In this document: positions 2,293 through 6,515 of the stretch, piece after piece
Position numbering within the stretch: the first letter of the stretch is position 1
Layout: every line of letters begins with the position of its first letter
From: a phage
DNA length: 64,000 nt
Direction: 5' to 3' (one strand)
Assembly: GCA_025830695.1 (NCBI GenBank)
Contig: GCA_025830695.1_4111.2
Notes under the pieces: generated by a model
What the model was told of the DNA's origin: nothing
Databases searched by the model: none
The model's input: the letters and a program-made list of their open reading frames with translations, nothing else
Translations under genes and position numbers: made by a program

Positions 2293-2520
2293 ATGACAAA
2301 TACTCTTAAGTACTACCTCAATACTCTAAATGAACTAGAGTACGGGGAATTTCTCTCGGATAGTTCGTGGCTAATTGAGCTAAAAAATTATAATAGTCCA
2401 GGATGCACCCTTATGATGAACAATGCAATTGATACCCTCATTGTGAGTATTTTACACAGCAACATCTGCGGGGATAGCAATAAACAATTATCAAAAATCT
2501 TAGTACTGCTATCTATATGA
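2293..2520 (+). CDS. family A small paralog, hypothetical
   Basis: first ORF of tandem array; SD AAGGAG; ORF track. Confidence 0.6.
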   Translation: MTNTLKYYLNTLNELEYGEFLSDSSWLIELKNYNSPGCTLMMNNAIDTLIVSILHSNICGDSNKQLSKILVLLSI

Positions 2521-2720
2521 ACATTGAACAGTACTACATCGATGCACTACCAACAAAAGGTCTACGAGAAAGCCTACTGTATACACAAAATACTTTTATA
2601 CACTACAAACGTTGTCCTAAACTCCTGAACTCGTACAGGAGTAATATCATAAGAAATGCTTTACAAGGGGCAGAAAGTATGCAATACTATTATATCCTTG
2701 CCCTTTTAATCGAGTACTAA
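2517..2720 (+). CDS. family A small paralog, hypothetical
   Basis: ATGA stop/start overlap with upstream gene; N-term MNIEQYYIDALP, C-term LALLIEY. Confidence 0.6.
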   Translation: MNIEQYYIDALPTKGLRESLLYTQNTFIHYKRCPKLLNSYRSNIIRNALQGAESMQYYYILALLIEY

Positions 2721-2721
2721 T

Positions 2722-2931
2722 ATGAATACTGAACATAAAGAATTCTACACCAAATACCTTAGCAACGAAGAACAATTGTTTCTAAGGAGTGTATCACCTG
2801 TAAGTACCAATACTCAATTCGGTAGAGATTGCTTTAATAATTGTATACGTAGTACTCTAGAAGCAATCGAATGCAATAACAAAAATATTATGTACTCAGG
2901 TTTAATAGGACTAATCTACTTCTATGAATAA
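2722..2931 (+). CDS. family A (subtype A2, MNxEHKEFY...NNCI...YE) paralog
   Basis: near-identical architecture to 5734..5943. Confidence 0.6.
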   Translation: MNTEHKEFYTKYLSNEEQLFLRSVSPVSTNTQFGRDCFNNCIRSTLEAIECNNKNIMYSGLIGLIYFYE

Positions 2932-3118
2932 TCATAAAGATTTCTATTGTAGTAAACTACACAAGCAAGAACAGCTATCATTCTCTTTAGCACCACCTAT
3001 GAGAAAGGATAATCTATATTACAATTACGATTTCAGGATGGCGACACGTTATGCAATAGAACATCAGTTCCCTGAAACTAAGTACCGCTCTATCCTGAAC
3101 CTCATCTTTAAGTTCTAA
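2924..3118 (+). CDS. family A small paralog
   Basis: tandem ORF, overlapping start. Confidence 0.55.
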   Translation: MNNHKDFYCSKLHKQEQLSFSLAPPMRKDNLYYNYDFRMATRYAIEHQFPETKYRSILNLIFKF

Positions 3119-3128
3119 AAGGTGCTAT

Positions 3129-3338
3129 ATGAAAACTACAAACATTCATCAGTACTACATAGATATTCTCCCTAAAGATGTACAGTTCATACTTAAACAA
3201 GAATTCAGTACTTTAAAAAAACTAAAAAGAACCGCACCTTCAGCAATCATCCAGCACCAAAAAAATGTCGTGCGTAATATACTACAAGGTACACCAGGGA
3301 CCGAGTACTTTAATATAGTAAGGCTAATTACATTATAA
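3129..3338 (+). CDS. family A small paralog
   Basis: N-term MKTTNIHQYYIDILP like 2517 ORF. Confidence 0.6.
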   Translation: MKTTNIHQYYIDILPKDVQFILKQEFSTLKKLKRTAPSAIIQHQKNVVRNILQGTPGTEYFNIVRLITL

Positions 3339-3523
3339 TGAATCATATAAGCTACTACTACCAACAACTATCCGACAGAGACAAGTACAGTCACAACTCC
3401 CATGTGTGGTACTACAAACGCGGCAGTATAAGAGACAAACAACATTACTTCTGTATTTCTATTAAAGAAGCACTGACAACTAAGTACACGTACCGAGCAG
3501 TACTGAAACTTATTGAAATGTAA
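3338..3523 (+). CDS. family A small paralog
   Basis: tandem ORF; C-term KLIEM. Confidence 0.55.
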   Translation: MNHISYYYQQLSDRDKYSHNSHVWYYKRGSIRDKQHYFCISIKEALTTKYTYRAVLKLIEM

Positions 3524-3531
3524 GGAAGAAA

Positions 3532-3714
3532 ATGAACATAGAATTCTATTTAACTAAACTACAACACGCCGAAAGATTCAACTTCAATAAGTTCAATATT
3601 TTCTACAATTGCGGGAACAAAAAAGATAAACACACCTTCCTATATGTCGTCACAAGAGATGCACAAAACGAAAAGTACACATACAGAGAAGTAATGAAAC
3701 TAATCGCTATTTAA
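3532..3714 (+). CDS. family A small paralog
   Basis: tandem ORF; C-term KLIAI. Confidence 0.55.
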   Translation: MNIEFYLTKLQHAERFNFNKFNIFYNCGNKKDKHTFLYVVTRDAQNEKYTYREVMKLIAI

Positions 3715-3722
3715 GGAATACT

Positions 3723-3902
3723 ATGCAACAATTCTATAGAGAACGTATAACCATAAAAGACCGTTTCATGTACGACACCTTCGTGAAGTACTACAAACTA
3801 GGAACAAAAAGTACTAAAAATATTAATCTCAATAACTGCATTTATGCTGTACTAACACAAGATAATCCCTACAGGGAAATCCTCGCCCTGGCATCTATAT
3901 AA
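3723..3902 (+). CDS. family A-like small ORF (59 aa)
   Basis: ATG 3723, TAA 3900-3902, read by eye (below ORF-track length cutoff); fills gap in array. Confidence 0.45.
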   Translation: MQQFYRERITIKDRFMYDTFVKYYKLGTKSTKNINLNNCIYAVLTQDNPYREILALASI

Positions 3903-3912
3903 AGGAAACCAA

Positions 3913-4584
3913 ATGAAACTTAATGCACACAGCAAACAATACCTTAAGCACTTTAAGTACCTCAATAGTATTCAGGCAGAATCAGTTACATCTGCATATA
4001 CGTATCACCCGAATGTACTAAAGAAACGAAATAAAAAGGAAAAATCCAGTACAAATGGAGTTAACGTATCAAAGAACCTTGAATTGTACATGAAGAAAAA
4101 TAATATAGCTGTTCATTATATGAATATCTATAATACTGATTTAAAAGTATTGAGTACTAATACGAGCACAAAGGTACTAAAGAACGCATCCTTCATCATC
4201 AATATGCAGTTGGATAATACCCCGTGCACTTTAATGCTATACTTCGGGAATACATACTTCTTCGGGAATTGTAACACCTCCCACGATGTCAATACAGCAC
4301 AATTCCAAATGGGTGGCATATACTCTACTGATGCAGAAAAAGTACACGAGAATATGCACTTCTGGCAAGCACAACGTACAGAAGAAACTGATACAGTACT
4401 ACAATTCCTCAAAGAATTACAAGGCAAAGAATTATCCGAGGAAGAACTATTCATGTACAGTACTGTAATCGATAATCCAGTACTCTATAAAAACGCGTAC
4501 AATCTGACAAAACATGTACAGGACATTATCAGTACTGATAAGAAAATGCATCACCTCATTACGTATATTACAAACTATGTATAA
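3913..4584 (+). CDS. hypothetical protein (223 aa) carrying family C-like EEELFMYSTVID motif, embedded in family A array
   Basis: ORF track; C-terminal motif matches E-E-x-F-x-Y-S-T-V-x-D of family C. Confidence 0.55.
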   Translation: MKLNAHSKQYLKHFKYLNSIQAESVTSAYTYHPNVLKKRNKKEKSSTNGVNVSKNLELYMKKNNIAVHYMNIYNTDLKVLSTNTSTKVLKNASFIINMQLDNTPCTLMLYFGNTYFFGNCNTSHDVNTAQFQMGGIYSTDAEKVHENMHFWQAQRTEETDTVLQFLKELQGKELSEEELFMYSTVIDNPVLYKNAYNLTKHVQDIISTDKKMHHLITYITNYV

Positions 4585-5156: not shown

Positions 5157-5157
5157 C

Positions 5158-5346
5158 ATGCATAAAGAATACTACATAAAAGATTTACCTCCGCACCTTC
5201 AAGGTAATCTGTTAGAAGATGAACCTAGCGGTATAGAAATAAACTACAAAAAAGACTACTTCATTACGTGCACTAAATGCGTGATAAATTATTACAACTA
5301 TAATCAAGTACTGTATCATACCCTGTACCTAGCTTTCGTATTCTAA
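5158..5346 (+). CDS. family A small paralog
   Basis: track ORF 5113..5346 trimmed to MHKEYYIKDLPP start. Confidence 0.6.
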   Translation: MHKEYYIKDLPPHLQGNLLEDEPSGIEINYKKDYFITCTKCVINYYNYNQVLYHTLYLAFVF

Positions 5347-5355
5347 GAGAACAAT

Positions 5356-5541
5356 ATGCATAAAGAATTCTACTTAAGCCATCTCGATCTAAACTCCCAA
5401 ATGCTTATACCACAAATCCCAATAGATATCAAGGATAAGAAAAATACCGAACAATTCATTTACCATACACAGTGTGCGATCACCCCAAATTACATTCCAT
5501 ATGAATTGTACTACATTCTCGCCCTAATATATAGGTACTAA
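5356..5541 (+). CDS. family A small paralog
   Basis: MHKEFYLSHL...LALIYRY. Confidence 0.65.
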   Translation: MHKEFYLSHLDLNSQMLIPQIPIDIKDKKNTEQFIYHTQCAITPNYIPYELYYILALIYRY

Positions 5542-5542
5542 T

Positions 5543-5728
5543 ATGCATAGAGAATACTACACACAATTTGTTAACGGGAACTACAAACATGCCGTACCCA
5601 GAACCCCTTTAAATTTTCATGACCCAAGTACTATATTCTTGTTTAATGACGCAATACGTACAGTACTCAATACTAAAGATGAAGATGTGCAGTACGTATT
5701 CTTACTATTACTTATATACAGACACTAA
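5543..5728 (+). CDS. family A small paralog
   Basis: MHREYYTQFV...LLLIYRH. Confidence 0.65.
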   Translation: MHREYYTQFVNGNYKHAVPRTPLNFHDPSTIFLFNDAIRTVLNTKDEDVQYVFLLLLIYRH

Positions 5729-5733
5729 CTAAT

Positions 5734-5943
5734 ATGAATAAAGAACATAAAGAATTCTACTCCAAATACATAAGCCCCTCAGAACAAATGTTTCTAAGGA
5801 CTACACCACCTTTAAGTACTAATACATTTTTCGGCAGAGTATGCTACAATAATTGTATTCAAATGACTTTAAACGCAAACGAAGATGGTAACAGTACTAA
5901 CCTGTACTCAGGTATCATAGGTATACTATTCCTGTATGAATAA
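5734..5943 (+). CDS. family A (subtype A2) paralog
   Basis: MNKEHKEFYSKYIS...NNCIQ...LYE, paralog of 2722..2931. Confidence 0.65.
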   Translation: MNKEHKEFYSKYISPSEQMFLRTTPPLSTNTFFGRVCYNNCIQMTLNANEDGNSTNLYSGIIGILFLYE

Positions 5944-6124
5944 TTACAAAGACTTCTATTTGAATACACTACCTACTGTACTTTCTCTAAGTGCTCAATG
6001 TAAAATCCCGCTGGATAATGCTTACGCCAGATATAGCTATTCCATAACTGTTAATCGATGTATAGAGAATCATTGCAGTACTAACCAGTACTATAACATA
6101 ATCCTACTTATATTCAGGTACTAA
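5936..6124 (+). CDS. family A small paralog
   Basis: C-term ILLIFRY. Confidence 0.6.
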   Translation: MNNYKDFYLNTLPTVLSLSAQCKIPLDNAYARYSYSITVNRCIENHCSTNQYYNIILLIFRY

Positions 6125-6125
6125 T

Positions 6126-6308
6126 ATGAATAAAGAACATAAAGAATTCTATATACGAAAACTAACATTCGTCCCCGTAAGAATATATAAAGAATGCGAC
6201 CCAAGATTATACCTATGGCACTTCAATGAGTGCATAAAAGATTCTATATACCCTAAGAACTATAAAGAAAAATTGTGCTCAGTACTAACACTAGTACTAT
6301 CATATTAA
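6126..6308 (+). CDS. family A small paralog
   Basis: MNKEHKEFYIRKL. Confidence 0.6.
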   Translation: MNKEHKEFYIRKLTFVPVRIYKECDPRLYLWHFNECIKDSIYPKNYKEKLCSVLTLVLSY

Positions 6309-6323
6309 TTAATAGAGAATACT

Positions 6324-6515
6324 ATGTATAAAAACTTCTATATAAGTAAACTAAAAGAAAATGAACAAGTATGGATTAGATCTATAATTCCACTGGCATT
6401 TAATAGATATGCATTTAACAGATGTACCGAGATTGCTATAGACCCTTATAATATTAAAGAGAATGTACAGTATAATCAGTACTACTATATCTTAATGCTT
6501 ATATATAGGAAGTAA
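6324..6515 (+). CDS. family A small paralog (last of array)
   Basis: MYKNFYISKL...LMLIYRK. Confidence 0.6.
   Translation: MYKNFYISKLKENEQVWIRSIIPLAFNRYAFNRCTEIAIDPYNIKENVQYNQYYYILMLIYRK

Follow-up and report, generated by a model that had tools for sequence, protein, structure and literature searches.

The array of small open reading frames (ORFs) analyzed here occupies positions 2293 to 6515 of a 64,000-nucleotide stretch of phage DNA (contig GCA_025830695.1_4111.2 of assembly GCA_025830695.1; the whole stretch is called the window). By sequence comparison, the source phage is an Asteriusvirus jumbo coliphage of the 121Q/PBECO4/phAPEC6 type: in the array region, identity to phAPEC6 is 97.8% and there are matches to 34 records of Escherichia and Salmonella phages, all of them Asteriusvirus, and the left flank shares 99.9% identity with PBECO4 and CRJP21. 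An initial annotation of the window had placed a third tandem array of about 19 ORFs at exactly these coordinates, and this is borne out. The array holds 19 consecutive ORFs, all on the + strand, 18 of them 59–75 amino acids (aa) long and one (3913–4584) of 223 aa, which is far above the chance expectation; for two genes the starts at 4577 and 5158 were preferred over the first in-frame ATGs at 4514 and 5113. The region is one operon of 19 closely spaced genes, 17 of which are paralogous, and it closes the coding part of the unique genome, ending 253 nt before the right direct terminal repeat. Its genes and the junctions of one recurrent type are as follows, where core, B and C denote the sequence groups described below.

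2293..2520, + strand: ORF 'O', 75 aa, first gene; marginal superfamily candidate (hhalign of B against O, E=1.5e-3).
2517..2720, + strand: group B unit, 67 aa; its start overlaps the preceding stop (ATGA).
2722..2931, + strand: core unit of subtype A2, 69 aa; GAG-TAC-TAA-T-ATG before the start; phrog_11711 match shown via the close paralog 5734.
2924..3118, + strand: core unit, 64 aa; 8-nt overlap ATGAATAA with no usefully placed Shine-Dalgarno (SD) sequence; phrog_11711 E=4e-23.
3129..3338, + strand: group B unit, 69 aa; 10-nt spacer with AAGGTG; partly deleted in 121Q, JP4 and SP27.
3338..3523, + strand: group C unit, 61 aa; TAATG overlap with the preceding stop.
3532..3714, + strand: group C unit, 60 aa; TAAGGA junction, -6.1 kcal/mol.
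3723..3902, + strand: group C unit, 59 aa; TAAGGA junction.
3913..4584, + strand: ORF 'Lg', phrog_29152, 223 aa; not of the small family; same position in every array examined.
4577..4777, + strand: core unit, 66 aa; 8-nt overlap with the 223-aa ORF, no SD site.
4787..4972, + strand: core unit, 61 aa; C-terminus LLLIYRY; phrog_11711 E=3e-28; used for structure prediction.
4964..4976, + strand: AGG-TAC-TAA-T-ATG junction, the Arg-Tyr-stop of unit 4787 and the start of unit 4974; -3.7 kcal/mol.
4974..5156, + strand: core unit, 60 aa; at least 96.6% identity in nearly all Asteriusvirus records.
5148..5160, + strand: AGG-TAC-TAA-C-ATG junction.
5158..5346, + strand: core unit, 62 aa.
5356..5541, + strand: core unit, 61 aa; TAAGAGA junction.
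5533..5545, + strand: AGG-TAC-TAA-T-ATG junction.
5543..5728, + strand: core unit, 61 aa; AGA-CAC-TAA tail; the next gene lacks an SD sequence here, and the equivalent spacer in JNE01 has AAGG.
5734..5943, + strand: core unit of subtype A2, 69 aa; missing in 121Q and SP27 jointly with unit 5936.
5936..6124, + strand: core unit, 62 aa; 8-nt overlap ATGAATAA.
6116..6128, + strand: AGG-TAC-TAA-T-ATG junction.
6126..6308, + strand: core unit, 60 aa.
6324..6515, + strand: last core unit, 63 aa; AGG-AAG-TAA tail with no gene downstream.

The core family (phrog_11711) was defined by all-against-all BLASTP, PHROGs and a hidden Markov model (HMM) built from the window, and consists of 12 ORFs (2722, 2924, 4577, 4787, 4974, 5158, 5356, 5543, 5734, 5936, 6126 and 6324). 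Five units that were scanned directly (4787, 4974, 5734, 6324 and 2924) match phrog_11711 over their full length with E=5e-9 to 3e-28, and the remaining seven match the window-built HMM with E below 1e-19; over the whole 64-kb window this HMM finds no member outside the array. Group B (2517 and 3129) and group C (3338, 3532 and 3723) cluster separately from the core, and neither these groups nor ORF 2293 nor the 223-aa ORF match phrog_11711. The five B and C units are distant relatives of the core that become visible only by profile–profile comparison. With alignments enriched with sequences from relatives (shallower alignments gave weaker signals), hhalign aligns the core full-length with C (E=1.7e-7, 93.8% probability) and with B (E=2.3e-6, 89% probability), and B with C at E=1e-3. 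ORF 2293 is linked to B alone, and the 223-aa ORF shows no relationship to the small family by either HMM or hhalign; the idea that it is a fusion of degenerate units was rejected (HMM scores of 0–4 bits and no hhalign signal). That all of the roughly 19 ORFs form one family, as was initially proposed, does not stand, since 17 of the 19 can be linked, one is marginal and one is unrelated.

These 17 ORFs (59–69 aa) are one superfamily confined to the Asteriusvirus phage group. The family comprises 64 clusters at 90% identity, with 32 representatives among 1.84 billion proteins, and every named source of its sequences is an Asteriusvirus phage. The 531-aa protein P0079, with seven matched stretches, was rejected as a member, being a low-complexity false positive. 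The signature that had been given for the members, an M-x-K-E-[YF]-Y start and an L-L-I-[YF]-R-Y end, describes the 12 core ORFs and not the other seven. Among 68 unique family sequences, K3 is found in 63, E4 in 55, and [FY]5 and Y6 in all 68, while the C-terminal tail is hydrophobic (L57-I58-[YF]59-[RK]60-Y61). The subtype A2 (2722 and 5734) is confirmed by BLASTP (E about 1e-30), and each A2 unit and the unit after it make up a block of two genes that is duplicated (75% identity over a 245-nt DNA repeat).

Orthologous arrays were compared in phAPEC6, JP4, BF17, 121Q, SP27, slurp01 and the divergent JNE01, leaving out the CMSTMSU record, which is frameshifted and 'unverified'. All array units are intact ORFs in the window and in these seven further genomes, and the layout is conserved: O, B, core, an optional B, three to six C units, the 223-aa ORF and then nine to twelve core units. 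The pooled ratio of nonsynonymous to synonymous substitution rates (dN/dS; Nei-Gojobori, reciprocal-best orthologs) is 0.39–0.48, compared with 0.14–0.29 for the neighboring gene 8441–8860. In the BF17 comparison, 125 synonymous changes over 653 sites stand against 259 nonsynonymous changes over 2689 sites. The array ORFs are under moderate purifying selection. Because the synonymous divergence (dS) between paralogs is mostly above 1, the duplicates must be old. The RCC1-like gene upstream could not be used as a dN/dS baseline, as a different paralog lies at that position in the compared relatives.

The AlphaFold2 model of unit 4787, predicted from a 69-sequence alignment, has a predicted local distance difference test score (pLDDT) of 92 and a predicted template modeling score (pTM) of 0.77, and shows four helices (residues 3–8, 12–15, 28–43 and 47–60). 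The conserved hydrophobic positions of the core units are F5, Y6, L10, L23, F34, C37, I42, L55, L57, I58 and Y59; other conserved columns are K3, E4, Q15 and P22, and the remaining positions are hypervariable. The product is thus predicted to be compact and built of four helices, with conservation in its hydrophobic core and strong variation on its surface. For group C, the prediction reaches a pLDDT of only 67 with the helix order of the core, and this model was left out of the fold search. The predicted core fold has no informative structural relative in the PDB or BFVD, and a sequence-profile search of the PDB with the family returned nothing significant. Pfam scanning of 10 array ORFs gave sub-threshold noise only and no DNA-binding domain, and the PHROGs search of the array ORFs gave families of unknown function only.

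The number of units is not constant among the relatives and ranges from 17 (121Q) to 23 (BF17). It is whole units that are gained and lost, through events in the conserved tail-plus-head junction blocks. In 121Q and SP27, precisely the two units 5734 and 5936 are missing, the crossover being within the identical head ATGAATAAAGAACATAAAGAATTCTA common to 5734 and 6126; slurp01 has one additional C unit; and in 121Q, JP4 and SP27 unit 3129 is reduced to a 3' remnant. The indel breakpoints are located in unit heads or junction blocks, and the best-conserved DNA block is made of a unit tail, the junction and the next head (63 nt, 65–86% identity). The array is also a mosaic, in that unit 4974 keeps its high identity in nearly all records whereas adjacent units differ by ~40%. 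Copy-number differences with breakpoints in homologous parts of the units are what tandem duplication and birth-and-death evolution predict, and the variation at unit boundaries is consistent with unequal recombination.

The conserved tails bring us to the junctions between the genes, on which the initial annotation had focused. It proposed that the terminal codons of a unit, AGG TAC TAA followed by T ATG, put an AGG 6–7 nt before the next start, so that the repeat unit would carry its own ribosome-binding site. Gaps between adjacent genes range from -8 to +15 nt, and the 18 junctions of the window include five overlaps (1, 4 or 8 nt) and five 1-nt gaps. The proposed sequence precedes 4974, 5543 and 6126, with AGG-TAC-TAA-C-ATG before 5158, and the distance from AGG to ATG is 7 nt; this part of the proposal stands, for 4 of the 18 junctions. 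A GAG-TAC-TAA-T-ATG variant precedes 2722. Four other junctions (3532, 3723, 3913 and 4787) have TAAGGA or TAAAGGA, with the SD sequence overlapping the stop codon; 3129 has AAGGTG, and 5356 and 6324 have GAGA. Five (2517, 2924, 3338, 4577 and 5936) are overlaps with no SD sequence at a useful distance, and 5734 has none. The junction alignment, which had been suggested as the check, therefore shows a purine-rich AGG at a fixed 7 nt in four cases, and TAAGGA, overlaps or weak sites in the rest. An SD site or coupling spacing is present at 15 of the 18 starts, compared with 25% of positions within the array by chance.

The same diversity is seen across phages. Among 57 unique junctions from seven phages, 15 have a gap of 0–1 nt (nine with AGG, four with GAG and two with AAG), 26 have a spacer of at least 8 nt, in 24 of them with an SD-like site (AAGGA, AAGG or GAGG) directly after the stop, and 13 are 4- or 8-nt overlaps without any SD sequence. 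In 28 the gap is 1 nt or less, and JNE01 has the same mixture of types. Stops and starts that overlap or lie a few nucleotides apart have the structure expected for termination/re-initiation coupling.

Predicted pairing with the anti-SD sequence is weak for the AGG type (-3.7 kcal/mol), stronger for the TAAGGA type (-5.6 to -6.1) and strongest for the first gene (-9.3); other window genes have a median of -5.85 kcal/mol and random positions a mean of -1.2. At the AGG junctions only the three nucleotides AGG pair with the 16S rRNA 3' end, at a spacing of 7 nt, while the SD definition used here asks for at least 4 nt, 5–10 nt upstream. The larger genes of the window meet at 58 junctions; 40 of these are tight or overlap, and an embedded SD site, with a median of -5.8 kcal/mol, is present in 82% of the 40. 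Embedded sites are the norm of this genome, and the AGG-in-codon arrangement is real but is ordinary compact-operon packing: it is one local solution imposed by tight packing, not the organizing principle of the array.

A separate question is whether the AGG codon is selected as DNA. The penultimate Arg is encoded by AGG in 24 of 30 unique unit sequences, which are not independent of each other. By comparison, AGG makes up 31 of the 254 other Arg codons of the array and 33 of the 338 Arg codons in the rest of the window genes. Gene conversion as the source of this bias was rejected, since the tail codons of the window paralogs share synonyms no more than mid-gene codons do (0.46 and 0.51 at identical amino acids) and are not homogenized; the Arg column alone stands out in the tail, with AGG in 5 of 6. 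Head codons (AAA-GAA-TTC/TAC) are also synonymously conserved, with a codon sharing of 0.73. A second candidate was the hexamer AGTACT, which is strongly enriched in the whole window (see below). It explains the G-ending Glu, Gln and Lys codons before TAC-T, a bias on such codon pairs that is also seen in other window genes, and was accepted for the GAG, CAG and AAG tails; for Arg it was rejected, because GGTACT is not enriched (30 observed against 35 expected in a third-order Markov model). All nine unique internal junctions with an AGG tail have a gap no wider than 3 nt; behind AGA tails the gaps are 5 and 9 nt, and the 9-nt one has its own AAGG. Together, these observations point to selection at the nucleotide level beyond the encoded Arg, with the caveats that the last gene retains AGG (AGG-AAG-TAA) with no gene after it and that the sequences are not independent.

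Two explanations of the AGG bias can be weighed against ordinary packing. One is the original model, in which the conserved Arg-Tyr-stop codons give each unit its own ribosome-binding site, making it a self-coupling module, and this need keeps the C-terminus conserved. The codon bias, the confinement of synonymous conservation in the tail to this one codon and the link between AGG and tight spacing all agree with it, as does the recurrence of the arrangement in the divergent JNE01 as GAGG-TAC-TAA and AGG-CAC-TAA. Yet the module covers 4 of the 18 window junctions and 9 of the 57 unique ones, its pairing is weak, the terminal gene has AGG with nothing downstream, and BF17 and 121Q tolerate AAG (Lys) at one junction. 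At position 60, 43 of 68 sequences have a basic residue (R or K), which indicates selection at the protein level there too; 13 overlaps are free of SD sites, and embedded sites are the rule genome-wide. The placement of AGG and its nucleotide-level bias can be retained, but as a general account of the array we regard the model as doubtful.

The other explanation is that the AGG bias has nothing to do with initiation and reflects a rare-codon pause, a relaxed (C)AGTACT(G) motif or descent from few ancestral tails, with downstream genes translated by plain termination and re-initiation. It would account for the AGG of the terminal gene and for overlaps that work without any SD site; the four window tails do belong to only two sequence subtypes, and the 14-fold enrichment of AGTACT does push Glu, Gln and Lys codons before TAC-T towards G. 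However, the unenriched GGTACT, the adjoining tail codons that are randomized at synonymous sites, paralog dS values mostly above 1 and the correlation of AGG with tight spacing are difficult to reconcile with it, and we consider it unlikely.

The hexamer is the core of a palindrome, CAGTACTG, of which the window holds 59 copies compared with 0.75 expected (e.g., at 2251–2258, 7148–7155, 11265–11272 and 15160–15167). AGTACT itself occurs 257 times against ~19 expected and GTAC 623 times against ~209, while GGTACC and CGTACG are absent from the window. Copies are found inside and outside coding sequences, and the motif biases codons (CAG, AAG and GAG before TAC-T); stretches free of AGTACT are found at ~26.1–31.5 kb and 34.0–41.7 kb. 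Our literature search found no description of the motif, which could be a protein-binding site or a modification target.

The signals at the two ends of the array are the following.

2239..2267, + strand: sigma70-type promoter-like site, TTGACA, a 17-nt spacer holding CAGTACTG, and TACTAT; 10 of 12 positions match; presumed promoter of the whole array.
2279..2284, + strand: SD sequence AAGGAG of the first gene, -9.3 kcal/mol; conserved in all relatives.
6527..6625, + strand: structured element of ~100 nt directly after the array; possible 3'-end or stability element.
6769..6789, + strand: start of the direct terminal repeat, first bases AGTAGGCAGAGGAAGTCTGCC with a short hairpin; 253 nt after the last stop of the array.

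Across eight phages TTGACA is invariant and the -10 element is TACTAT, or TACAAT in JNE01. No terminator-like site was found on the + strand inside the array. A conserved sigma70 -35/-10 pair upstream and an uninterrupted array are, at the level of sequence, what would be expected of an early unit transcribed by the host RNA polymerase. The element at 6527–6625 that follows the array has a 3' half, TTAAAATTCAGCCTGGACAAATGCGATCACTAGGATTCT, that does not vary in any of the relatives, JNE01 and two metagenome contigs among them, and its fold z-scores range from -3.4 to -6.0. In JNE01-type sequences both strands of the outer stem are altered, from GGGGA/UCCCC to CUAGAU/AUCUAG, and a different apical hairpin takes the place of the original one. 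RNAalifold showed no covariation from an alignment in which MAFFT had misaligned the variable 5' arm, and the sequences were folded individually instead. The element has no U-tract, and Rfam gave no match over the whole window, this element included.

Position 6769 corresponds to the first base of the direct terminal repeat of vB_Ec-M-J, in which the right-hand copy of the repeat begins 275 bp after its own array. The repeat is 21.5 kb long in vB_Ec-M-J, and 20.7 kb is reported for Sharanji. As the repeat starts at 6769, the window spans the right end of the unique genome, the repeat and the left part of the genome. No convincing ORF lies in the ~1.9 kb at 6515–8440, and most relatives have no annotation there. 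This stretch contains 11 copies of CAGTACTG, a perfect sigma70 consensus promoter (TTGACA-16-TATAAT at 7134–7161) and several repeat families, including GAYGGATTTTGGRCGTAG in four copies and a 44-nt repeat at 8287 and 8340. Further into the repeat, near-identical strong promoter-like cassettes, AGTACTTGCAATTAGTTTTCAGTACTGTATAATGTTTTACAT..AGGGGAGAAATG, are located at 11246–11300, 15141–15195 and 15370–15425, and also at 9905, 17537 and 24953. These cassettes precede small genes within the terminal repeat and are consistent with a battery of early promoters.

On the other side, the array is adjoined upstream by the RCC1-like gene (988–2208, - strand), which is 26% identical to the phAPEC6 gene at that position and has 99.9% DNA identity to PBECO4 and CRJP21. 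phAPEC6 has eleven copies of this family, some of them in virions, and from the low identity and the multiple copies it appears that the RCC1-like family, too, is a variable multicopy family beside the array. At 35000–62000 (+ strand) there is a long run of back-to-back ORFs of 100–200 aa with overlaps of 1, 4 or 11 nt; those that were tested match different PHROGs, one each, all of unknown function. An ARAGORN search found no tRNA.

The explanation that fits most of these data, and that we hold with moderate confidence as a whole, is that this 19-gene operon encodes a paralogous four-helix family, with moderate purifying selection and turnover of its units, whose products would be early, translationally coupled, non-virion and host-directed. 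In this mechanism, the host sigma70 RNA polymerase would transcribe the array from the single conserved promoter at 2239–2267 into an early polycistronic mRNA, and ribosomes would move from gene to gene by translational coupling through three interchangeable junction designs. In the first, AGG or GAG would be the penultimate codon before a gap of 0–3 nt; the second would be a spacer of 8–15 nt with an SD sequence overlapping the stop codon (TAAGGA); and the third, a 4- or 8-nt start/stop overlap without an SD sequence, used by re-initiation. The products would bind host targets, in takeover or anti-defense, and a shifting repertoire of units may let the phage follow variable targets. The array is probably such a set of early, non-virion, host-directed proteins. 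Virion mass spectrometry of phAPEC6 (PMC7247149) lists gp549 and gp551, which are array neighbors in that phage, and none of gp540c–gp548c. In CBB, a related phage, RpoD-like promoters cluster over short ORFs, which the authors regard as early host-takeover genes (PMC5259590).

Several points weigh against this explanation. Virion mass spectrometry readily overlooks small proteins, so that their absence is weak evidence, and the early timing is deduced solely from the promoter consensus and the analogy with CBB. Coupling, in the same way, is suggested by the spacing alone. Our literature search found no transcript, ribosome-profiling or proteomic data for the array genes and no relevant Asteriusvirus transcriptomics. 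Moreover, a dN/dS of 0.4–0.5 and the remnant of unit 3129 would also fit genes that are partly dispensable.

This last point can be taken further, to an array that is mostly dispensable duplicated filler, accumulated under the larger-capsid ratchet of Hua et al., in which ORFs are open merely through recent origin. Tandem duplication was indeed suggested as a route of jumbo phage genome expansion (Hua et al., 2017; PMC5646251), and the variable copy number, the remnant of unit 3129 that persists in some phages and a dN/dS about twice that of a neighboring gene are in line with such a view. But the paralogs are old, and still all are intact in eight genomes at 34% GC; dN/dS is clearly below 1, as the BF17 counts show; the family has a conserved hydrophobic core and a confidently predicted fold; some units keep at least 96.6% identity in nearly all records; and the layout is retained even in JNE01. 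We therefore see filler as an improbable explanation. Finally, the view that gene calling produced the small ORFs spuriously in non-coding repeat DNA, such as a replication or packaging element, could draw on the nearby terminal-repeat boundary and on the many GenBank records that annotate only part of the ORFs, but it is effectively refuted by a dN/dS below 1, by reading frames conserved on one strand in all phages compared, by a protein-like conservation pattern that supports the pLDDT-92 model and by SD or coupling spacing at 15 of 18 starts.

Public annotation of the array is in fact incomplete: 9 of 19 ORFs are called in phAPEC6 and 12 of 23 in BF17, and the CMSTMSU record, apparently full of frameshifts, has the 223-aa ORF in four pieces. 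As a lesson for annotation, many GenBank records call only 4–12 of the ~19 array genes.

Returning to the preferred reading of a coupled early operon, the array can be compared with several known systems. Translationally coupled phage operons are characterized by start/stop overlaps (ATGA, TAATG) and by SD sequences embedded in the 3' codons of the upstream gene. The array resembles them in its gaps of -8 to +15 nt and in SD-like purine runs in or directly after the upstream stop, and the remainder of this phage genome is built alike; in the array, coupling is suggested by the spacing. It differs from the genome norm in that its embedded sites are weaker (-3.7 compared with -5.8 kcal/mol) and in that its overlap junctions lack SD sequences, while overlaps between the larger genes usually have one. 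The ribosome-binding-site idea alone leaves current understanding unchanged, because it matches standard compact-operon design.

Tandem duplication arrays are known from jumbo phages: over 30 similar genes are reported for 121Q and for phage G (Hua et al., 2017; PMC5646251), and such arrays are also mentioned in the phAPEC6 paper (PMC7247149). The present array belongs to the same phage lineage as that of Hua et al. and likewise consists of head-to-tail paralogs on one strand, explained by tandem duplication, but theirs are presumably the paralogs of 150–200 aa at 35–62 kb of this window. In our literature search we came across no account of the 60-aa array, the designs of its junctions, the variation in its copy number or its location beside the terminal repeat. 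phrog_11711, which the 12 core units match full-length and which leaves groups B and C and ORF 2293 outside, is a PHROG without annotation. Jumbo phages have genes without a known function by the hundreds. Tandem duplication is one proposed route to jumbo phage size, and the array offers a clean and compact example of it, which unites old intact units, turnover between near-identical isolates, a fold matching nothing known, a location at the edge of the terminal repeat and a host-type promoter.

Small early phage proteins that act in anti-defense or host takeover, such as the anti-CRISPRs and the early proteins of T4 and T7, are another point of comparison. The array products share with them a small size, a narrow phage range, a sigma70-type promoter and fast evolution; they differ in that no linked Aca-like regulator was identified and in having no similarity to known inhibitors.

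Large eukaryotic DNA viruses carry terminal multigene families, or 'gene accordions', such as the poxvirus host-range genes and the multigene families of African swine fever virus (ASFV). By analogy only, the array is similar to these in being lineage-specific and multicopy, in lying beside a terminal repeat, and in its isolate-variable copy number and variable surface. Its proteins, however, are only ~7 kDa, and roles in host range, immune evasion or adaptive amplification are unsupported for them. One could go further and see the array as the phage counterpart of the poxvirus and ASFV families: interchangeable four-helix binders would be reshuffled by unequal recombination at the tail-plus-head blocks and so track host targets or defenses, and the blocks would be kept both as recombination substrate and as coupling signal, so that new copies arrive ready for expression. 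This is a speculative extension, which we consider rather unlikely in this full form. If the products are host-directed effectors, the locus would be useful for studying how phage multigene families diversify and could yield new small proteins that bind E. coli targets.

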